64,000 bases of DNA from a virus: the IMG/VR virus record IMGVR_UViG_3300017991_000010, positions 1-64,000 of that record. The stretch is one strand, 5' to 3'. The notes below the pieces were generated by a model. That model ran no database searches and was not told the origin of the DNA. It was given only the letters and a program-made list of their open reading frames with translations. The position numbers and the translations under genes were made by a program. Below, in pieces: positions 2,620-38,713 of this stretch. Each line of letters starts with the position of its first letter. Positions within the stretch are counted from its first letter, which is position 1.

Positions 2620-4094
2620 CAGTCGTCCTCCCCTAGCCAAGCGCGCAGCTCGGCCAGCACGGTCTCCTCGTCTCGCATCTCGTCCAGGGCAGCGCGCCCG
2701 GCGCCTCCGCCCTCGGTGTCGGCCCCGACGTCCTCGACCACCGCGAGCTTGTCGAGTAGTGAACGCCGAACCTGCTCGTCGATAGTCCCTTCGGCGACCA
2801 GATAGTGGATCGTGACGGGCTTGCCCCCTAGTCGTCCCACGCGCCCCTCCATCTGCACGAGGTCGTGGGGTGTCCACGGGAGCGCGCACCACACGAGCCC
2901 GTCGGCCTGGTGCAGGTCCATCGAGGTCCTGACGCTGTCCGCCGTGGCGATGAGCGCGGCCGGGCCCTCGTAGCGCTGGAACTCCTCGGCGATCGCGCTG
3001 CGCGGCCTCGAGTCGATGTCCCCGGTCACGCTGCGCAGCCACACGCCGTCGCGCACTGCCTCGCGGCACTCCTTCTCGACTACCTTGCCCAGGGCCAGCG
3101 TGAGGTGCGCCACGAGCTTCTTGCGCGAGGTCACGAGCACGACCTTGCAGCCCTGGTTGAGGTACTCGAGCGCCGTCTCGCACGCGAAGGGCTCCTTGGC
3201 CTCAGCAGCGCGCGAGATCGCCATCTCGACGCCCCCGCCCATGTAGCGGCACTGGCTGTAGTCCGGGGTCACGAGGCGTACGTCGCGCTGGACGGCAGGC
3301 AGCTCGTGCGCCACGTCCGCGCGGGACGCGACCATGAAGAGGTGCCCACAGCGCGTCCCCAGCTCGCCCAGGTTGCTCGAGCCCGTGGTGCAGAGGCCGC
3401 CCCAGTCGTTTCGGTAGGCGGCACAGTAGCGCTCGAGCCACTGGAGGCGCCCCAGGCGCTCGTCGCTCTTGCGCGTCCACATGGGGTAGCGTGACGGCGA
3501 GGCGATGTGCATCTGGGCCCAGAGGTCGCGGACGCGATCGCGCACCGGCGTGGCCGTGAGCTGGATCACGCGCCCCCTACGCCTGCGCACCTGACGCGCC
3601 AGCTCGACAGCGTGCTCGAAGCGGCGCTTCTTGTACCCGCCGCTCTGGAGCTTGCGGGGCGGCCTGTGCCCCATCTTCAGCTCGTGCGCCTCGTCGAGGA
3701 TGAGCCATTGCCAGGGCACGTGCGCCAGCTCTTGAGCGCGCCGTCCGATGACCTCATAGTTCGTGACGACCATCGAGGCGTTTTCCAGCGCGCGCTCGAG
3801 GCTCGAGAACGTGCCATCACGATGCACGCCCTTTTTGCTGTACTGCTTGCCGCCCCAGAGGACGGACACAGGCTGCTCGAGCATCCACTCCGCGTCCCTG
3901 GGCCAGACGTGGCGGCCGATCGCGCGCGTCACGATCAGCACGGGCGCGCGCTCGTCCTGAGACCACGCCGCGAGGGTCGTGGCTGTCTTGCCAAGGCCCG
4001 CAGCCCACCAGAGCCCTGCCCACCGCGGATCGGCCAACGCCAACGCGGCGCGCTCTTGGTAGGCACGTAGCTTATGCCAACCGGGGCAGGTCAC
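2619..4094 (-). CDS. SNF2-family (SF2) helicase/ATPase
   Basis: LRAYQ Q-motif, AGLGKT (I), TNYE, LILDEAH (II), TATP (III), QMEGRVGRLG (VI), IHYLVAEGTIDE; GTG start at 4094 overlaps the upstream stop. Confidence 0.9.
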   Translation of the reverse strand: MTCPGWHKLRAYQERAALALADPRWAGLWWAAGLGKTATTLAAWSQDERAPVLIVTRAIGRHVWPRDAEWMLEQPVSVLWGGKQYSKKGVHRDGTFSSLERALENASMVVTNYEVIGRRAQELAHVPWQWLILDEAHELKMGHRPPRKLQSGGYKKRRFEHAVELARQVRRRRGRVIQLTATPVRDRVRDLWAQMHIASPSRYPMWTRKSDERLGRLQWLERYCAAYRNDWGGLCTTGSSNLGELGTRCGHLFMVASRADVAHELPAVQRDVRLVTPDYSQCRYMGGGVEMAISRAAEAKEPFACETALEYLNQGCKVVLVTSRKKLVAHLTLALGKVVEKECREAVRDGVWLRSVTGDIDSRPRSAIAEEFQRYEGPAALIATADSVRTSMDLHQADGLVWCALPWTPHDLVQMEGRVGRLGGKPVTIHYLVAEGTIDEQVRRSLLDKLAVVEDVGADTEGGGAGRAALDEMRDEETVLAELRAWLGEDD

Positions 4095-22486: not shown

Positions 22487-23017
22487 ATGAGACTAGCGGC
22501 GGTCCCCTCGTACCATACCCAGCGATATCAGGGCACAACCAATACCGTCCGTCACATGGACCAGCTGGCGCGAGGGCCCAGGGGCGAGCGCTCCATGAAG
22601 CTGCGCATGACCGTCGAGGACATCGTCTCCGGCGTCGAGCCACGTGATCGCGTCAGCCAGCTCGCGGCCATCTACGCTTGGTTCAACGATCACTTCCACT
22701 ACATCAACGACCCCGTCGAGGTCGAGCTGGTCAAGGACCCTGAGCGCCTGCTCGAGGAGATCGAGCGCCGCAACGTGGCCATGGGCGACTGCGACGACGC
22801 AGCCACCTTTCTGTTCGCCGCGCCGCGCACCATTGGCATCCCTACCGAGTTCCTTCGGGTTGGCTTCAAGGCCAACGCGCCGATGGGGGGGCGCCTGACG
22901 CACGTGCTCGTGTGCGCCACCGACCAGTACGGCCGGCGCGTTCTCCTGGACCCAGTGGCGGGCAAGCGCGTGCCCAACATGGTTGAGCGCGTCAAACACG
23001 CCGTGAGGGGGTACTGA
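22487..23017 (+). CDS. Transglutaminase-like (papain-fold) Cys-His-Asp enzyme; candidate virion maturation protease
   Basis: HYINDP..VE, GDCDD (catalytic Cys), THV (His), LDP (Asp). Confidence 0.8.
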   Translation: MRLAAVPSYHTQRYQGTTNTVRHMDQLARGPRGERSMKLRMTVEDIVSGVEPRDRVSQLAAIYAWFNDHFHYINDPVEVELVKDPERLLEEIERRNVAMGDCDDAATFLFAAPRTIGIPTEFLRVGFKANAPMGGRLTHVLVCATDQYGRRVLLDPVAGKRVPNMVERVKHAVRGY

Positions 23018-26491: not shown

Positions 26492-28553
26492 ATGCCAGGG
26501 ATCACGGACGTACTCAGCCAGGGACCGATCGCGTTCCTGCAGACCTACCGCGGGCCATGCACCGACACTGCCCAATGCTGTGCGTTGGTACGCGCCGCCT
26601 CGGAGGGCGGGCTGCAGCAGATCCTGTCGGGCGAGGCGTCTCCCTCGTTGCCTCCGATCTTCTCTTGCCACACGGCTGCCCGAGAGGCGTTGACAGAGCG
26701 GCAGACCAACAGGAGCATCCGCAACGCCATGATGATCGGGGGGGTTGCTGGCGCGGTTGTTGGCGAGCGTTTGGGCGGCGGGTGGATGCTCGCGATCTGT
26801 GGGATCGCCGGATCACTCGTCGGGCGGGCTCTGGCGTGGCCTAGGGGCTGATGATGAACTACGCAGAGCTGATTTGGCGCGCGGCTGGACTCGGTGTGGG
26901 GGCCCTTGCCGGTTGGCTGGTTGCTGGTAGAACGGGCGCTCTAGTGGTAGGCGGCGCGGGGGCGCTCTTTACCCCAGAGTTGATTGCTTACGGAGCACGC
27001 GCGAGTCGTGCGGCTCGCACGATCGCACGATAGAGAGGAATACGATGCCACAGTACGTAAACGGGAAACTCTACAACATGCACGGCGAGGGCTCGGTCCC
27101 GATCGGCCCGGCCATCCCCTGGCGCGGGGGCGTCTTCGGACAGCCGCCGCTCCCCCAGCCGCGCGCGGGCATCTTCACCGCCCACTGGCCCCTGCCCTGG
27201 CAGGCCCAGACCGACAACACGATCGGTCCGCGGCACAACCTCCTGCCCGATCGCTACATGCGCTCGAGCGGCTGGCCCGTCTACGGCTTGGGCGACAACC
27301 AGAACGTCGAGTACGGCGCGGGGCGGGGCATGATCTCGCGTCTCGTCGCAGGTGGCGTGGCGCCCCTGCGCACGGCCATGTCTGTCGAGGGAGCGACCTC
27401 GATGGCCGCAGCCAACCCGGCGATCCTCGGTGCGCTCATCGGCGCGATCGGCGCGGGCAAGGGCAAGCGCCTCAAGGGCGGTCTGCTCGGCGCGTTGCTG
27501 GGCATCGGCGGCAAGATGACCGCGCAGGCGGTCTCGGGCCCCACAGCCATGGGCGCGCAGGCGGGCGGCGCTGCCACGGGCGGCCTCGCTGCGGCGCTGT
27601 TCCTGCGGAGGTAGTCATGCCCAAGATCACGGCAGGCTCGAACCTGTACAACGCGGACCCGCCGCGCCAGCCCGGCCCAGGCGGCCGTAGCTACCCGGCG
27701 TACGGGCGTGAGTGCCCCCCGGCGGCCCTGCGTCCCATCTCGAGCGGCTACAACACGATGATGTCCACCGGCTACCCCACGCGCTCGGCGTGCCTGAAGT
27801 GCGGCCCTCCTACGGTCGCGCCATACTGGTCGGGCGGGGGGATGGCAGGCATGGGCGTGGGCACGACGATCGCTGCGTTGCTCTTCACGGGCATCGGAGG
27901 CGTGATCGCGGCCTACATGGCCCCAGACGGCCGCCGGCTCGTCGGCGCGCTTGCGGGTGGCATCCTCGGGTGGGGCACCTCCTATGCCGTCAACGAGATG
28001 ACGGGCAGCGTGGGTGCAGCGGCCGTGTCCCAGGTTCCGGCAGGCATCCTGGCGGGCATGCTCGCGAGAAAGCTATGAACCGCGCCCTCTACAACCCAGC
28101 CCTGAGCGATGGCTTCCGCATCGGAGGAGGCTTCGGCGCAGGCATGATCGCTTTCCTCGTCATCGGAGGCGTGGTAGTCTTGTGGCTACTGGACCACGCG
28201 ATCGGCGATCAGTCGGTCGAGGCGAGATGGAGGAGGACCCACAGATGATCCTCTCAGCACGACGACCCGACGGCACGTACGTCTACTACCAGGCCGCCAA
28301 GCACCCTGGCCGCGCCAAGGGCCCCAGGCCCGGCGCTATCGGCCTCGGTGTCGAGCAGGCCGTGCCCACCTGCCCCTGGGGCGCGAAGCGTGTCGGCAGC
28401 GGCAGGCGCGCTCGTGGCGTGGTTTGTCGGCAAGGCGGCCTCGCGGGCCTGGGCGATCTCGCAGGCATGAGCGGCCCCATCGCGGGCATCCTTCTCACAG
28501 CGGCCCTGTTCGGTGCGGTCTGGCTGGCCGGGCCGATCCTGTCGGGGCGCTGA
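26492..28553 (+). CDS. Six small Gly-rich membrane proteins (26492-26851, 26851-27033, 27045-27614, 27617-28078, 28075-28248, 28245-28553)
   Basis: Glycine-zipper hydrophobic helices; tightly coupled starts and stops. Confidence 0.7.
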
Positions 28554-29041
28554 TGACCCTCGCCGCCGTCAAGAACCGCTGGTCGACCTTCCATCAGAAG
28601 GAGCCGCGCGAGCTGATCGAGATCGACGCGCCCTGGCCCAAGGCCTGGGGCTACGTTGGCGAGGCCGTGCGCGTCTACTACCTCAGCGACAAGTGGAACG
28701 AGGACGGCGACTTCATCCCGTACTACCACGACCACGACGGCGGGGTCGAGCTGTGGGAGCCCTGGGGCGCGCAGGACGGCATGACCGACAAGTGCAAGAG
28801 CCCCGCGCGCGGCATCCCCTGCAAGCAGGCAGCGGTCCTGGGCTACTGCCTGGGCTGGTGGCTGCTCGACGAGGACGACCCCAAGAAGGTCGACGCGGTC
28901 GAGTTCGATGAGGACGAGGCGCTCCTGTGCTCGACGGCATCGGGCAAGGCGCTCTTCGTGGTGAGCTTGAGCGATGGCAAGGTCATAGCGGCGTTTACTG
29001 GTGGCAACCTGTCCGTCGAGTCGGCGGGCATCGACGGCTAG
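28553..29041 (+). CDS. Hypothetical protein, probably virion-associated
   Basis: TFH..EP...GEAVRVYYLSDKW...YYHDH...GG.L.V...GI; located in the morphogenesis operon. Confidence 0.6.
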   Translation: MTLAAVKNRWSTFHQKEPRELIEIDAPWPKAWGYVGEAVRVYYLSDKWNEDGDFIPYYHDHDGGVELWEPWGAQDGMTDKCKSPARGIPCKQAAVLGYCLGWWLLDEDDPKKVDAVEFDEDEALLCSTASGKALFVVSLSDGKVIAAFTGGNLSVESAGIDG

Positions 29042-29051
29042 AGGTGATGAA

Positions 29052-29870
29052 ATGGCGTTCATGATCCCGGTGTATAGCAAGGCGGACTTCGTAGAGGTTG
29101 ATGGCAGCTACGGCGACACGTTCCTGGTTCCGTTCGAGTACTACGACGAGGATTCTGGCGAGATCGTGGAGGAGTACTCGGGCAAGTGGTTCTGTCAGCT
29201 GAGTGCCCCCGGCTACATGGACCAGACCGACTGGATGGGGCCCTTCGACACACTCAAGGAGGCGAAAGCCGAGCTGAGCGACGTCTACGAGGTCGACCCG
29301 GAGACGGGCGAGCAGTTGGAGTACTAGACGATGGCACGGCGATCCGACTATCAGTGGTCCCGCAACTCCTCGGTGGAGGCGCGCGAGCTGGCGATCTTCA
29401 TCGACAACGACGGGCAGCTCTACCGGCAGATGGTGGTGCCCATTCAGAAGAACCTCGTGACCAAGATGGCACGCGGGACGTACGACAGCGAGAAGGCCCA
29501 CAAGGCGTTCTACAACCTCGCCGTCGAGGGCGCCAAGCGCTACACCAATACGCACGGCGGACGAGGGGCCGTGTGGCACGAGATGTTCTCCGTAGCCGAC
29601 CGCAAGGCCGCAGCCGCCGAGCTGCTCGCGGGCTTCGAGGAGGAGGCCGAGCTGGGCAACTACGACGACCTCCTGCCGAAGAAGTACCGGCGAAATGCGG
29701 GCGGATCGGATATGGTCCCCCACCCCAACGTCAACTGGTGGGATCGTGAGGATCTGGAGCGCTACTTGGTGTGGCGTGGGTTTGCGGTGTACGCCAGAGA
29801 GACCGACGACGAGCTGCGGAACGCTGTGCGAGAGGATCTGCCCCAGGCTGAAGCTGACGGCTGGATCTAG
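29052..29870 (+). CDS. Two hypothetical proteins resembling phage early-gene families (29052-29327 acidic; 29331-29870)
   Basis: WFCQLSAPGYMDQTDWMGPFDT; ARELAIFIDNDGQLYRQ...GTYDSEKA; family resemblance from memory only. Confidence 0.6.
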
Positions 29871-30106
29871 CCCTCGATCGACCGCCCCTTCAGAGCAGCC
29901 CCCTTCACCTTCTTCGTCCGCGAGTAGCGTATCAGCGCGAGCAGGTCCTTGCGCATGATGCGTGTCGTCCCTCCCACGCGCACGCAAGGCAGCACGCGCT
30001 TCTGCAGCCAGCGCTTGACCGTCGAGACGTCCACGCGCATGTACTGGGCGACCTCGCCGATCGTGAGCAGGTGGTGCGGCGGGAGGCGGGTTTGCAGGGG
30101 GCGCAT
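29867..30106 (-). CDS. Excisionase-like HTH_17 DNA-binding protein
   Basis: LLTIGEVAQYMRVDVSTVKRWLQKRVLPCVRVGGTTRI. Confidence 0.85.
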   Translation of the reverse strand: MRPLQTRLPPHHLLTIGEVAQYMRVDVSTVKRWLQKRVLPCVRVGGTTRIMRKDLLALIRYSRTKKVKGAALKGRSIEG

Positions 30107-30114
30107 ATGGTAGC

Positions 30115-30242
30115 ATCATACTAGATCGTAGAGCGTCGGTCAACGCGCGAAGATCATTGCACCCGACCAAGAAGACCACCTTCCTTCTGGGCGCGCACGC
30201 CCGCGAGACGTATTGACTCCCTCCCTCCAGCGCGCGTACTCT
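30115..30242. promoter_or_regulatory. Back-to-back divergent promoters
   Basis: Minus strand: TTGACC(30143-30138)-17 nt-TATGAT(30120-30115). Plus strand: TTGACT(30213)-18 nt-TACTCT(30237). Confidence 0.65.
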
Positions 30243-30300
30243 TGATCGCGTACCCACCGATGCGCCGCCCGGCCTCATCGGCCAACGAAAGGGCGGCTCT

Positions 30301-31917
30301 ATGGCTCGAGTGACCTACCGCAGCAGGCGCCGGACGGCCAAACCCAACCCGGGCTTCCTGACCCTGGTCAATCCGGGCAAACCCCCCCGCAAGCGGAAAC
30401 GAGCCAAGCCCAAGAAGCGAACCACGGGGGCCAGCCGGCGCCCGAGAGCAAACAGCACTGGAGGAACAATGCTGAGAAGGAAAAAGCGGCGCGCAGCCCC
30501 GAAGCGTCGGCGCAAGGTCGCCAAGCGCAACCCGATGTCGGCTGCCAAGCGCAAGGCCGCAGCCAAAAAGGCTGCCCGGACCCGCGCTGCCAACAAGCGG
30601 AAGCGGTCCCTCGCGGCCAAGAAGGCCGCCCGGACGCGCAAGCGCAAGTCGCGCAAGCGTGCAGCCCCGAAGCGCTCGTACCGGCGCAATGCTTCCAAAA
30701 AGCGGAAGCTGACCGCGGCGCAGAAAAAGCGGCGCGCAGCTGCCCTCAAGGGCATCCGGCTCAAGAAGGGCCGCAAGGGCAAAAAGCGCAAGGTCACCAA
30801 GGGCGTCAGCCCCCGGCCCAACCGCAGGCGGCGCGTGACCCGTCGGCGTAGGAGCTACATGCGCAACAGGCCCGTCCGTAGGCGGCGCATCAGGCGCAGG
30901 GCCAAGCGGAACGTCGGGCTGGAGATGCTCAAGAGCGTGGGCGCTGGCTTCGCCGGCTTCCTGGCGGGTCGACTGACCGCCAACATGCTTGCTCGGGCGA
31001 CCTTCCTGCCCGCAGCTGTGCAGCCCTACGTGCCCCTCGTCGGAACCGTCGGCGCTGTGGCGCTGGCCTACTACCTCCCGAAGAAGGTCAAGGCCCTCAG
31101 GGTCAAGCCGGCCACGCACACCGCTCTGGTGCTCGGCACCGGCATCGCGGCTGCGGACGTGCTCTTCTCGTCCCTGGCCCCCGCCAGCGTGCGTCAGTAC
31201 GTCGGCGCTCCCCCGCCTGTGGCCATCCCCGGCCTCTCGGGCGACCTGAGCGTCTACGAGGCCTCGCTGCGCGGCTTCGGCACCCCGCCCGCCTTCCTCG
31301 ACGAGAGCGGCGACTGGGGCATGCAGCCCATGTTGCCCGGCCGGAGCTACCCCGTGGGCAAGTCCATGGCCGAGTACGTGCAAGAGCCCCTGGGCGCCAC
31401 CGTACACGAGGCGATGGCCGAGTACATCCAGGAGCCCGGCATGGGCGAGTACGTCGTGGACGAGGATGGCGCAGTCCTCTCCGGCCATGACGAGCTGGAC
31501 GCAGGCGTCGTGAGCGACGGCCTGTTCGGCGACGACGTGGACATCATGGCTCTCGATGGGGACGAACTCCCTTTTGAGGGTAGCGCAGCTGCCGGCGCCG
31601 CCGCGGCTGCAGCGCGTCGCATGGCTCAGATCGGCGCAGCCAACGGCCGCCCCGAGGCTGAGGTCCACCGTGCCGGCTACGGCGCAGCGTGCCAGGCCAT
31701 TGGCGCGGGTCAGCTCTCGAGCGCCCTGCGTGCGATGGTCGAGGCGGAGATCCAGAAGGCCATGGGCCGCGTGCAGGCGTTCACGCCCGTGCAGGACCCG
31801 GCCGCTGGCGCCCCGATGGCCGTCGGCCCGATCCGCGCCCCCCAGCCCGCCAAGTGGACCTACGGGTCCGTGAGCGAGGGCGGAGGCGTCTTCGGGAAGT
31901 CGAGCATCGGCGGCTAG
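30301..31917 (+). CDS. Extremely basic, membrane-linked putative core/DNA-condensing protein precursor
   Basis: N-terminal ~200 aa dominated by R/K (AAKKAARTR twice), then three hydrophobic helices, an acidic region with MAEY(V/I)QEP repeats, and C-terminal GGVFG. Confidence 0.7.
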   Translation: MARVTYRSRRRTAKPNPGFLTLVNPGKPPRKRKRAKPKKRTTGASRRPRANSTGGTMLRRKKRRAAPKRRRKVAKRNPMSAAKRKAAAKKAARTRAANKRKRSLAAKKAARTRKRKSRKRAAPKRSYRRNASKKRKLTAAQKKRRAAALKGIRLKKGRKGKKRKVTKGVSPRPNRRRRVTRRRRSYMRNRPVRRRRIRRRAKRNVGLEMLKSVGAGFAGFLAGRLTANMLARATFLPAAVQPYVPLVGTVGAVALAYYLPKKVKALRVKPATHTALVLGTGIAAADVLFSSLAPASVRQYVGAPPPVAIPGLSGDLSVYEASLRGFGTPPAFLDESGDWGMQPMLPGRSYPVGKSMAEYVQEPLGATVHEAMAEYIQEPGMGEYVVDEDGAVLSGHDELDAGVVSDGLFGDDVDIMALDGDELPFEGSAAAGAAAAAARRMAQIGAANGRPEAEVHRAGYGAACQAIGAGQLSSALRAMVEAEIQKAMGRVQAFTPVQDPAAGAPMAVGPIRAPQPAKWTYGSVSEGGGVFGKSSIGG

Positions 31918-31992
31918 CAACTGAAACGACCGGCGCCTCTCCTCGCCATGGAGGCTAAAGAAACGGCGTCGGCAAGCATAGAGGAGGCAGTA

Positions 31993-32604
31993 ATGCCTAA
32001 GATTCGCGGAGCAAGAGAGAAGCGCCACCAGCCGTTCTGGGATAGCCTGATTCGCGGCACGGCGGGCAGCTACACGTTCGCATCCGGCGCAAACGCGCTG
32101 GGCGCGACCAACAACCTGTTCCAGACCCAGTCGGGCGGGAACCTGGCGATCACCAACATGGAAGGCAGCGGCGTCTTCCCGTCGGATCAGACCTACCGAA
32201 TCCTCGCGATGCGCGTGGGACTGCACTTCCGCGGGATCACCGGCGGCGGCCTGACCGATCACATCATGTACCACCGAGCCGCCTGCCAGCTCTTCTGGGA
32301 GCTGTTCGTCGCCCAGAAGTCGGCGTTCCAGGCGTACACGCCCTACCTGCCCCTCGGCGGCGGGCTCTTCGGTGACGTCGGCAACGACACGACCGTGTAC
32401 TTCAACAACGGAAACCCGGGCATGGACGCGACCATGGTTCTCGCCCGCAGCATCGCCCTCCCGGCGAGGCAGAACTTCCGCGTCGTGAACACGATCGTGG
32501 CCTGCGGCGCCGCCAACTTCCTCACCGACATCGGCAGCGTGACCGGCGGGGAAATCTGGATCTGGTACACGGTGGACGGCTTGCACGTCCGCGACATCCT
32601 GTAG
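31993..32604 (+). CDS. Putative major capsid protein (single jelly-roll candidate)
   Basis: 203 aa, beta-strand pattern, strong GAGGAGG RBS, very high codon bias, directly after the basic protein; fold is inferred. Confidence 0.5.
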   Translation: MPKIRGAREKRHQPFWDSLIRGTAGSYTFASGANALGATNNLFQTQSGGNLAITNMEGSGVFPSDQTYRILAMRVGLHFRGITGGGLTDHIMYHRAACQLFWELFVAQKSAFQAYTPYLPLGGGLFGDVGNDTTVYFNNGNPGMDATMVLARSIALPARQNFRVVNTIVACGAANFLTDIGSVTGGEIWIWYTVDGLHVRDIL

Positions 32605-38257: not shown

Positions 38258-38713
38258 ATGCCTGGTCCTTTCGATCGATCCATTCTCGACGCGCTGACCG
38301 GCTCCCTGGTTGACACCGTCAAGGGCGCCGCCTACTCCGCCATCCCCGAGTGCAACTGCTGCGACCAGAAGGCCGTGCCCATCCCGTGCGTGGCCTGCGG
38401 CGAGTACTCCTGCATCGATCATGGGTTCTTCAACAAGCGCCTACAGGCGATCTGCGGCCAGTGCGCCATGGCGCTCGAGGTCGACCTCGACGAGGACGAG
38501 CCCCAGGTGGCCGACGTCGACGCCGAGCGCATCGACTGGGCGTTCTCGATCCTGGGCCTGAGTAAGAGCGCGACAAGCGACGAGATCAAGGCCGCGCACC
38601 GCAAGCTGGCCATGCAGTACCACCCCGACCGTGGGGGCAATGAGACGGACTTCTCGCAGGCGCAGAAGGCCTTCGAGGTCGCGTCGGAGTACGCAAAGCA
38701 GGAGGGACGATAG
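38258..38713 (+). CDS. J-domain (DnaJ-like) co-chaperone with an N-terminal Zn finger
   Basis: FSILGL...EIKAAHRKLAMQYHPDRGG..DF; CxxC/CxxH clusters. Confidence 0.9.
   Translation: MPGPFDRSILDALTGSLVDTVKGAAYSAIPECNCCDQKAVPIPCVACGEYSCIDHGFFNKRLQAICGQCAMALEVDLDEDEPQVADVDAERIDWAFSILGLSKSATSDEIKAAHRKLAMQYHPDRGGNETDFSQAQKAFEVASEYAKQEGR

Follow-up and report, generated by a model that had tools for sequence, protein, structure and literature searches.

A conserved polycationic protein encoded beside the putative capsid gene of a large tailless bacterial virus: a candidate genome-condensing membrane tether

Introduction

What is the function of a viral protein that joins an arm of some 200 Arg- and Lys-rich residues to hydrophobic helices and acidic repeats, and whose gene lies directly before a putative capsid gene? 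The gene in question was found in the window, a stretch of 64,000 nucleotides from the complete 94-kb genome (G000; 66% GC) of an uncultured tailless bacterial virus. A sequence-only reading of this DNA had proposed that the protein condenses the genome and tethers it to the viral membrane in place of a packaging motor. To our knowledge, all the well-studied dsDNA phages, tailed or membrane-containing, build an empty shell first and then drive naked DNA into it by means of an ATPase. Genomes condensed by proteins occur in eukaryotic viruses (adenovirus, baculovirus, ascovirus) and in some archaeal viruses. The analysis presented here suggests, from the architecture of the protein and its position beside the putative capsid gene, a protein-assisted condensation of DNA on the viral membrane, a process that we do not know to have been described for phages.

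Results

The reading frame and its parts

The gene and the segments of its product are the following.

30301..31917, + strand: full-length gene, long isoform, 538 aa, ~59 kDa (open reading frame, high in-frame GC3, conserved N-terminal motif)
30301..30912, + strand: polycationic arm, residues 1-204 (composition, AF2, family charge range)
30913..31176, + strand: hydrophobic module with predicted helices 205-232, 241-262 and 272-292 (AF2, hydropathy, loop charges)
31216..31575, + strand: acidic disordered region, residues 306-425, with three [ML][GA]EY[VI] repeats (nt 31366-31458) and an LDAGVxxDGLFG motif
31576..31914, + strand: three-helix bundle, residues 426-492 (pLDDT ~80), then a Gly-rich tail ending in GGVFGKSSIGG

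GC at codon position 3 lies between 0.75 and 0.91 in all segments of the frame, residues 1-56 included, and the basic region is conserved in relatives, so that the basic, hydrophobic and acidic parts of the gene as first described all belong to one coding sequence. The Arg/Lys domain, previously put at about 200 residues, spans 204, with 38 Lys, 58 Arg and neither Asp nor Glu, for a net charge of +96 (47% Lys plus Arg; 28% Arg, 19% Lys). Residues 81-120 of the arm form a confident AF2 helix (pLDDT ~90), the model of the whole protein being poor (pLDDT 50.7). All the acidic repeats were located (MAEYVQEP at residue 356, MAEYIQEP at 372, MGEYV at 381); they are kept family-wide under the consensus [ML][GAS]EY[VI], and Y375 is present in all 18 relatives aligned. 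The C-terminal bundle and tail segment is missing from the P0008, P0015, P0019 and P0026 lineages; P0008 is carried on an 87-kb ENA contig, and the contigs behind the other family members measure 87-179 kb. Tandem Repeats Finder detected no DNA-level repeats beneath the basic or acidic peptide repeats, and an Rfam scan of positions 29800-32100 matched no family.

AF2 does return three hydrophobic helices. Their insertion into a membrane is a prediction and not a certainty, because the helices are only moderately hydrophobic (KD is at least 1.4 in two windows of 19 residues, with maxima of 1.48 and 1.75) and helix 1 contains the polar residues R224 and N228, the former nearly invariant. A topology check based on loop charge (loop 1, 0; loop 2, KKVKALRVK, +5) predicts that the three helices are arranged N-in/C-out. 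Relatives display the same pattern: loop 1 is close to 0 and loop 2 carries +2 to +6 in 17 of 18, P0033 having a loop 2 of 0. The net charge of the C-terminal part is -17 in the window protein and ranges from -9 to -35 across the family. The idea that the acidic half serves as an intramolecular chaperone is not supported, because -17 is little against the +96 of the arm and because the loop charges place the two on opposite faces of the membrane. A capsid-facing or scaffold-like role is possible for this half of the protein.

Conservation of charge and of Asn-Pro

With a cut-off of E <= 1e-3, a profile search gathered no fewer than 69 sequence clusters; 27 pass E <= 1e-10. Architecture and motif counts were taken from an alignment of 18 diverse family members. 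Common to these and to the window protein are the element NPxLLTLVNPGKP, the polycationic arm, an R[RK]NP junction, a GFxGFLxGRLxAN helix, a KKVKxL loop and the acidic repeats. Family arms are 162-390 aa long with net charges of +69 to +121; in the close clade, lengths range from 162 to 305 aa, yet net charge varies only from +92 to +105. As judged from these alignments, what is preserved in the arm is its charge, with sequence and length both varying. Two short elements flank the arm.

30340..30384, + strand: N-terminal motif, residues 14-28, KPNPGFLTLVNPGKP (conservation in 18 family sequences)
30910..30915, + strand: Asn204 junction, KRN-V here and R[RK]NP in most relatives (N204 in 17/18, P205 in 11/18)

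Within the N-terminal motif, N24 and P25 are found in 18 of 18 sequences, V23 in 17, and L20 and L22 in 15 each. The Asn-Pro dipeptide occurs 75 times across the 18 family arms against an expectation of 10.5, an approximately 7-fold enrichment; the enrichment in the interior of the window protein's own arm is not significant. These figures bear on the eight Asn-centred motifs said to punctuate the basic domain. All eight exist, but conservation is limited to N16-P, N24-P and N204, and does not extend to RANS, RRNA, RPNR or MRNR. The Asn-centred motifs were an over-reading, the true signal in the alignment being the Asn-Pro dipeptide.

Searches of the protein against Pfam (E <= 0.01), PHROGs and NCBIfam matched no family, and none of the three holds a model for this one. 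A PDB sequence search gave only chance-level matches, with either the profile running from the hydrophobic helices to the C-terminus or the arm alone. No match was obtained by tblastn among INPHARED phages, and the close-clade alignment found no related loci in IMG/VR or GTDB genomes. The ESM Atlas gave an uninformative result: the top feature score was 0.88, to unnamed viral clusters, with structural TM scores all below 0.3. A literature search turned up no paper on the family or the lineage. The N-terminal motif LLTLVNPGKP picks out these viruses sharply in searches, and through it a second complete genome came to light, G001, of 104 kb.

Expression signals and two possible starts

The region upstream of the gene and the first part of the arm contain the following candidate signals.

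30213..30242, + strand: candidate promoter, TTGACT (30213-30218), 18-nt spacer, TACTCT (30237-30242); layout conserved
30264..30297, + strand: 5' leader hairpin (MFE -23.6 kcal/mol, z = -2.1)
30460..30471, + strand: internal Shine-Dalgarno GGAGG (30460-30464), 4-nt spacer, ATG at 30469 (Met57); homologous arrangement in L002 and L003

Public gene calls use the Met57 start, and those for this clade, by beginning at the internal Met, omit the best conserved motif of the protein. Relatives with a later start in the public annotation keep the N-terminal motif too, and by this measure of conservation the start at 30301 is genuine although those calls miss it. Starting from Met57 would give a short isoform of 482 aa with an arm of net +77. 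The internal GGAGG and ATG, already pointed out as a potential second start, are kept in two close relatives: a strong Shine-Dalgarno sequence precedes the homologous Met (AGGAG in L002, AGGAGG in L003) in spite of differences in the encoded peptides, the joint chance of this being ~1.7e-5. Because of this conservation, the protein is likely made as two isoforms in the close clade. No internal Met was found in the arm of G001, so the internal start is not universal.

According to the sequence-only reading, the gene has a promoter of its own. A strict sigma-70 scan detected none on the + strand upstream of the gene; the alignable counterparts TTGACC-18-TAGTTT in L002 and TTGACG-17-TAGCGT in L003, separated by unrelated spacers, nonetheless define a conserved layout, TTGAC[TCG]-17/18-TAnnnT. 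The 3' arm of the leader hairpin covers a weak Shine-Dalgarno-like AAGGG and stops 3 nt before the first ATG. L002 and L003 carry an equivalent hairpin with changed bases (z = -3.2 in L003), a comparison of three sequences that is suggestive of conservation. RNAalifold missed the hairpin in the upstream region owing to misalignment, and single-sequence folds recovered it. The sequencing runs that contain the sequence are DNA only, from sediment and seawater metagenomes, with no RNA run listed.

Genomic setting

Two genes adjoin the polycation gene.

31993..32604, + strand: candidate single-jelly-roll major capsid protein (MCP), 203 aa (43 homologue clusters, AF2 model, structural match)
29867..30106, - strand: divergent HTH_17/excisionase-like gene with its own sigma-70-like promoter, 30143-30115 (Pfam, PHROG, promoter scan)

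The capsid candidate does lie directly downstream, as had been noted, and the adjacency is retained in L002, L003, L004 and G001; in these loci and in G000 the order is a gene resembling that at 28424, the polycation gene, then the MCP gene. The AF2 model of this highly conserved capsid candidate is a jelly roll (pLDDT 70, pTM 0.71). Its top structural match is the SPV1 MCP, 6oj0 (Z 8.5, 135 aligned residues, rmsd 3.3), a score to be read with caution in that best hits commonly reach Z 7-8, and at 8.5 the best hits of unrelated models are often found too; further viral jelly rolls match at 5.5-7. Two beta-rich proteins are encoded after the capsid candidate. The HTH_17/excisionase-like gene is present in L002 and absent in L003. 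A transglutaminase-core Cys protease-like gene (22487-23017) has a counterpart of 48% identity in G001. The genome also encodes many predicted membrane proteins.

The notion that the protein acts in place of a packaging motor was examined by searching all 94 kb of the complete genome. At E <= 1, nothing there matched FtsK/HerA (PF01580) or A32 (PF04665), models that do match control genomes, and nothing matched the large terminase (PF03237, PF03354). Walker A motifs are confined to replication-type ORFs. The notion is consistent with these results, but it depends on negative HMM and motif searches, which cannot prove that a motor is absent: a divergent ATPase is possible, an AAA ATPase is encoded at 83957-85180, and several of the large ORFs of the genome carry no annotation.

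Discussion

A genome-condensing membrane tether is a plausible reading of these conserved features. More specifically, we propose a structural protein that tethers the condensed genome to the viral membrane of a large tailless bacterial virus during concerted assembly, a proposal to which we give an even chance. In this picture, a late-type promoter belonging to the gene would drive both it and the jelly-roll capsid gene. The weak start behind the leader hairpin would yield the 538-aa form with LLTLVNPGKP and the strong internal start the 482-aa form, and the two isoforms may fix the proportion of copies with the motif to copies that lack it. The arm would stay on the cytoplasmic face and bind viral dsDNA non-specifically; some 2,000 copies would neutralise the charge of the genome wholly, and some 1,000 would neutralise half of it. 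The hydrophobic helices would anchor this nucleoprotein to the viral membrane, and on the far side of that membrane the acidic repeats and the bundle would touch the capsid shell or sub-capsomer proteins. In this scenario, the genome would be condensed on the membrane while the particle is being built, rather than pumped into an empty shell. Because a cytoplasmic arm would lie outside a vesicle pinched off the cell membrane in the PRD1 style, the model calls for the membrane to arise in some other way, for example as open sheets or as sheets formed de novo. Formation of a vesicle in the PRD1 manner would place the arm between membrane and capsid, away from the DNA. We know of no bacterial virus for which a route through open or de novo sheets has been proven.

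The features that flank the arm invite a different interpretation, unlikely in our judgement. The protein might be a polyprotein cut after N24 and at N204, autolytically or by a viral cysteine protease, freeing a protamine-like core peptide of ~180 aa and leaving a membrane/capsid-linker protein, in the manner of adenovirus pVII/pX. Reovirus mu1 provides a known case of autocleavage at Asn-Pro. The invariance of N24-P25 and near-invariance of N204, which mark both ends of the arm, would fit such processing, as would the 7-fold Asn-Pro enrichment of family arms and the conservation of the protease-like gene in G001. However, N204-P205 abuts helix 205-232, where it could just as well cap the N-terminus of the helix at the membrane interface. 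In addition, residue 205 of the window protein is Val rather than Pro, and the interior Asn-Pro sites vary in position.

A PRD1-type topology, with the arm sandwiched between capsid and membrane, would make the protein a membrane-shaping cement or tape that acts on anionic lipid head groups and capsomer bases and never contacts DNA. The positive-inside prediction, which puts the arm on the cytoplasmic side with the soluble capsid proteins, is in keeping with this arrangement, and SPV1 has a sub-capsomer protein array between membrane and shell (PMC8459092). We nevertheless consider it improbable. The acidic EY-repeat part (net -17) would then share the lumen with the DNA; the MCP candidate, at +2, is close to neutral and thus offers no obvious counter-charge for the arm; and lipid binding needs far less than about +96 per copy.

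Polar R224 and N228 inside helix 1 raise the thought that the hydrophobic module is a conduit or membrane remodeller acting at infection, with the arm escorting DNA into the host; membrane-containing phages such as PRD1 are reported to deliver DNA through virion membrane proteins (PMC4267777). An entry device of this kind strikes us as quite improbable, as a charge-conserved arm of 160-390 aa better fits stoichiometric DNA neutralisation than a pilot role, a preference shared by the position beside the MCP, and the Pfam, PHROG and NCBIfam searches found no fusogenic or lytic domain. Very improbable, in our estimation, is a non-structural tether of replicating viral DNA or of the host nucleoid to the cell membrane: the design of a polycation plus an anchor would suit that role too, and a divergent HTH regulator adjoins the gene, but the gene sits within a conserved virion block, fixed beside the MCP in five loci, and the HTH gene is missing in L003. 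Finally, the basic region might be an artefact, with GC-rich DNA read out of frame as Arg-rich sequence and the true gene beginning at Met57 or later. This view, prompted by a 66% GC genome with many spurious Arg-rich ORFs and by the public gene calls at Met57, is refuted by the conservation data and keeps a negligible chance at most: the arm has 38 Lys, unlike spurious ORFs, in-frame GC3 is 0.75-0.85, 18 diverse relatives keep the motif that precedes Met57, and the frame is open in all loci.

If membrane-anchored condensation is the correct reading, it would represent a second genome-encapsidation route in bacteria, and the family would mark a large virus lineage missed by current annotation. 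It is tempting to go further and imagine an undescribed, widespread lineage of tailless bacterial viruses of ~90-180 kb that dispense with a motor and enclose their genomes by concerted assembly, the DNA being condensed on a viral membrane by an anchored polycation of about +100, made as two isoforms and perhaps cleaved at Asn-Pro in an adenovirus-like maturation, whose EY-repeat tail recruits single-jelly-roll capsomers; we offer this composite picture as a doubtful guess.

Among tailless bacterial viruses, PRD1, PM2 and P23-77 (Tectiviridae, Corticoviridae, Matshushitaviridae) have genomes of 10-20 kb and an FtsK/HerA-type packaging ATPase. The present virus resembles them in its jelly-roll capsid candidate and its many small predicted membrane proteins, and differs in that HMM searches found no FtsK/HerA-type packaging ATPase; we know of no polycationic membrane protein from PRD1, PM2 or P23-77. 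In small viruses, the capsid protein itself may include an Arg-rich arm, as the hepatitis B core protein includes a protamine-like tail. Such segments, disordered or helical, have a charge of about +10 to +20 and neutralise the packaged nucleic acid, and it is their charge, not their sequence, that is conserved. The same mode of conservation is seen here, in an arm of about +96 fused to a membrane module. Protamines and baculovirus P6.9 are tens of residues long, more than half Arg, and have no further domains, whereas the present protein has 538 aa, an arm with 28% Arg, and membrane, acidic and helical modules added to it. The adenovirus core proteins VII, V and mu are soluble Arg-rich proteins that neutralise and condense dsDNA in a jelly-roll-type capsid and undergo maturation by the viral protease at the motif (M/I/L)XGX-G; adenovirus also has a packaging ATPase, IVa2. 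Shared with them are the Arg-rich composition, a possible origin from a precursor whose boundaries are marked by conserved motifs, and a cysteine protease-like gene in the viral genome. Unlike VII and mu, the window protein has no Pfam match (Adeno_VII included), contains three hydrophobic helices and has Asn-Pro at its boundaries.

SPV1 (Portogloboviridae) combines a single-jelly-roll shell, an inner membrane and a nucleoprotein core of VP1 (PMC8459092). It infects an archaeal host and has a 20-kb circular genome, and its VP1 is a separate, filament-forming nucleocapsid protein for which no membrane anchor is mentioned (PMC8459092). Its MCP is the nearest fold to our capsid candidate, in a match little above background, and a plan of shell, membrane and condensed DNA would be common to both, an inner membrane and a nucleoprotein core of the present virus being suggested by its many predicted membrane proteins and by the polycation itself. 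By description, the present polycation is set apart from VP1 by its fusion to a predicted membrane anchor. A further parallel is P64 of the ascovirus SfAV-1a, a large cationic virion protein for which condensation of a 100-200 kb genome has been demonstrated (PMC6163548). No sequence relation between the two proteins was apparent. The description of the insect virus protein mentions neither membrane helices nor an acidic EY-repeat tail, whereas ours has predicted membrane helices and such a tail, and its condensing of DNA is a prediction. The two proteins are alike in their size of ~60 kDa, in being very basic, in belonging to dsDNA viruses of ~100 kb or more, and in having a long basic domain, instead of a small protamine, that condenses the genome in the case of P64 and is proposed to do so here.

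Coding status and layout of the polycationic protein

The open reading frame at 30301-31917 (+) encodes a 538-residue protein laid out as follows, the helices, disorder and bundle being AF2 predictions from a full-length model of low overall confidence (pLDDT 50.7):

residues 1-204, basic arm: 58 Arg, 38 Lys, no acidic residue, net charge +96
residues 205-232, 241-262 and 272-292, hydrophobic helices
residues 306-425, acidic stretch, disordered
residue 356, acidic repeat MAEYVQEP
residue 372, acidic repeat MAEYIQEP
residue 381, acidic repeat MGEYV
residues 426-492, three-helix bundle, fairly confident

The Arg/Lys domain of about 200 residues, the hydrophobic helices behind it and the acidic repeats, all described in the sequence-only reading, are thus recovered. 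An artefact frame is rejected for the basic region, since GC3 in this frame is 0.75-0.91 in all segments and the arm is Lys-rich as well as Arg-rich, unlike the genome's many spurious Arg-rich frames.

A word-based search yielded four relatives (45-58% identity); three related loci are available as DNA (L002, L003 and L004). A profile of the hydrophobic-to-C-terminal part, searched against 1.8 billion representatives, retrieved 69 clusters at E <= 1e-3, 27 of them at E <= 1e-10; no relatives were found in Pfam, PHROG, NCBIfam or PDB. An 18-member alignment of diverse sequences, with column counts, defined these family features:

N-terminal motif: [RK]xNPxLLTLVNPGKP, N24 and P25 invariant
arm: 162-390 aa, net +69 to +121
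junction: R[RK]NP, N204 in 17/18
helix 1: GFxGFLxGRLxAN
loop 1: neutral
loop 2: KKVKxL, positive (+2 to +6 in 17/18; 0 in the relative P0033)
helix 3: ends in DVLFS
acidic repeats: two to five [ML][GAS]EY[VI], Y375 invariant
further motif: LDAGVxxDGLFG
terminal motif: G[IV]F..g.F, in many members

In the window's clade the arm measures 204, 304, 162 and 305 aa, with net charges of +96, +98, +92 and +105, respectively, and can scarcely be aligned beyond a few blocks. Judged from these sequences, it is the charge of the arm that is conserved and not its sequence, a pattern expected of a nucleic-acid-neutralising polyelectrolyte. Given the ~188,000 phosphates of the 94-kb genome, roughly 2,000 copies are calculated to achieve complete neutralisation. 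In some relatives an aromatic, less basic insert, PxxGW[NY][WY]V...[HY][WY]R[FY], lies in the arm after the N-terminal motif and before the internal Met (residues ~130-165 in L002, ~140-185 in P0008); the window protein has none. Several lineages represented by protein sequence only (P0008, P0015, P0019 and P0026) stop just past LDAGVxxDGLFG...VLD, without the helical bundle at the C-terminus.

Start codons and promoter

Public gene calls start at Met57, giving 482 aa, and those of relatives at the equivalent Met. In L002 and L003 the frame stays open upstream of the called start, and nowhere is the arm better conserved than in the N-terminal motif of this upstream stretch; on these grounds the ATG at 30301 is genuine. 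The internal GGAGG and ATG near 30469, proposed earlier as a second start, belong to an arrangement kept in the window, L002 and L003: each has the Met, with a strong Shine-Dalgarno (SD) sequence 4-10 nt before it (GGAGG, AGGAG or AGGAGG). The SD bases themselves encode differing peptides (TGGT, EGDD, RRKNT), the joint chance of the three sites is ~1.7e-5 given the 5-mer density per arm, and SD-ATG pairs in this genome are mostly gene starts. Ahead of the first ATG there is just a weak AAGGG, which lies inside the 3' arm of a hairpin:

30264-30297 (+), leader hairpin, also present, with altered bases, in L002 and L003

We infer that two isoforms are made from the two starts, the hairpin possibly limiting the long one. 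The internal start is specific to this clade: in G001, a second complete virus genome, the arm of the distant relative lacks any Met. An 8-bp inverted repeat at 30453-30474, flagged on the minus strand by a terminator scan, surrounds the internal GGAGG and ATG.

A strict promoter scan near the gene found only the divergent promoter of an HTH gene. TTGACT-18-TACTCT at 30213-30242 aligns with TTGACC-18-TAGTTT in L002 and TTGACG-17-TAGCGT in L003; because these TTGAC/TAnnnT elements align across three loci with unrelated spacers, the suggestion that the gene has its own promoter gains support.

Neighbourhood and capsid candidate

The sequence-only reading had the target gene sitting directly before a putative capsid gene. 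This holds: the homologue of 31993-32604 (+) directly follows the target gene in L002, L003 and L004, and local gene order in G001 is the same. At 74-84% identity in the three loci, its product is conserved better than any other protein of the block, and it has 43 homologue clusters on contigs of up to 179 kb. Its AF2 model is a jelly roll (pLDDT 70, pTM 0.71), with the SPV1 major capsid protein as top structural match (Z 8.5, 135 residues, rmsd 3.3), followed by satellite panicum mosaic virus, STIV, HCIV-1, P23-77 VP17 and HHIV-2. SH1 appeared only in the Foldseek list, where no match reached E <= 0.001. The product is likely a single, capsid-like jelly roll; likeness to SPV1 is a lead, as Z 8.5 only marginally exceeds what best hits commonly reach.

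The homologue in L004 contains a full-length group I intron (1617-1853, +; RF00028, 85 bits, E 2.5e-22) between ...GAFPS and DQTYR..., and L003 is broken at the same point, near 3171; the window gene, unlike this relative, is uninterrupted. Upstream, the target gene is always adjoined, bar the optional HTH gene, by 28424-29041 (+), which encodes 205 aa (41-54% identity in L002, L003 and G001; no Pfam or NCBIfam match). Its homologue precedes the target gene in L002 and L003; L004 begins inside the target gene, so this neighbour is out of its range. A J-domain protein (DnaJ, E 4e-13) is encoded at 38258-38713 (+), inside the virion block, with a 52% identical copy in L002, and may recruit host Hsp70 during assembly.

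Topology, maturation and the place of the arm

An arm of +96 cannot plausibly cross a membrane. Because loop 1 is neutral, loop 2 positive and the C-terminal part net -17, the positive-inside rule predicts an arm-in, tail-out topology. The suggestion that the acidic half is an intramolecular chaperone is not borne out: with one sixth of the arm's charge, and predicted on the opposite face, it could not shield the arm, which argues for a part facing capsid or scaffold.

Among the Asn-centred motifs noted in the basic domain, the Asn-Pro ones proved conserved and the rest of the eight did not. The 18 family arms contain 75 NP where 10.5 are expected (31 against 6.2 in arm interiors); in the window, the pattern takes in just the pair of N-terminal NP, KRNP (77) and the Asn of the junction. 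These dipeptides may serve as helix caps or turns of a DNA-binding arm; alternatively, they may mark cleavage sites. As two invariant sites bracket the arm exactly, adenovirus-like maturation, in which the arm would be cut at both ends, is kept alive. A transglutaminase-core (Cys protease-like) gene at 22487-23017 (+), 48% identical to 71030-71521 (-) of G001, encodes a candidate maturation enzyme.

The viral membrane of PRD1 has been proposed to pinch off the cell membrane. Such pinching would leave the arm, along with the cytoplasmic face, outside the vesicle, as fits an arm between shell and membrane; that location is less attractive, however, since the capsid candidate is near-neutral (+2) and the protein's own tail acidic. 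A DNA-condensing membrane protein would for the same reason call for a different membrane route, for example open sheets or sheets formed de novo. Such a genome-condensing function is the main, plausible reading of the target gene.

Packaging, genome and host

The sequence-only reading dispensed with a packaging motor. Searches of the complete genome with FtsK/SpoIIIE, Pox_A32, Terminase_6N and TerL_ATPase models gave no match at E <= 1, which is consistent with that view and does not prove absence. Walker A motifs were confined to the SbcC-like, AAA_24 and AAA (PF00004) ORFs, one unannotated ORF and, by chance, the target's own C-terminus. The classic AAA ATPase, at 83957-85180 (-) of the complete genome (L015:2-1180) in the replication-side arm, is the only P-loop protein without an obvious replication or repair tie, and a possible unconventional packaging factor.

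The IMG/VR record, of which the window is bases 1-64000, is complete at 94,028 bp, with a 123-bp direct terminal repeat (DTR) and ~66% GC. Its gene content includes a family A DNA polymerase with a fused UDG-like domain, an SbcC-like ATPase, an SNF2 helicase, a PD-(D/E)XK nuclease, an AAA_24 protein and an M23 peptidase. This gene set, with SD sites and sigma-70-like promoters, points to a bacterial host. Metagenomes from six studies, of sediment and seawater, contain near-identical DNA. Back-translated LTLVNPGKP matched one further IMG/VR record, G001, a complete DTR genome (104,264 bp, 62.8% GC) sharing transglutaminase-like, AAA_25, polymerase and glycosyltransferase genes. Contigs carrying capsid-protein homologues measure 87, 104, 114, 140 and 179 kb, which suggests a lineage range of roughly 90-180 kb. 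Literature searches turned up no account of large tailless bacterial viruses forming such a lineage.

Comparison with known systems

By analogy, the functionally closest systems are ascovirus P64, the adenovirus core proteins and the SPV1 nucleoprotein core, none of them sequence-related to the target protein or, to our knowledge, membrane-anchored. DNA condensation has been demonstrated for P64 (PMC6163548), and SPV1 combines a jelly-roll shell and an inner membrane with a DNA core condensed by protein (PMC8459092). On this analogy, the target gene may be filed as a putatively membrane-anchored variety of a known kind, the viral genome-condensing basic protein.
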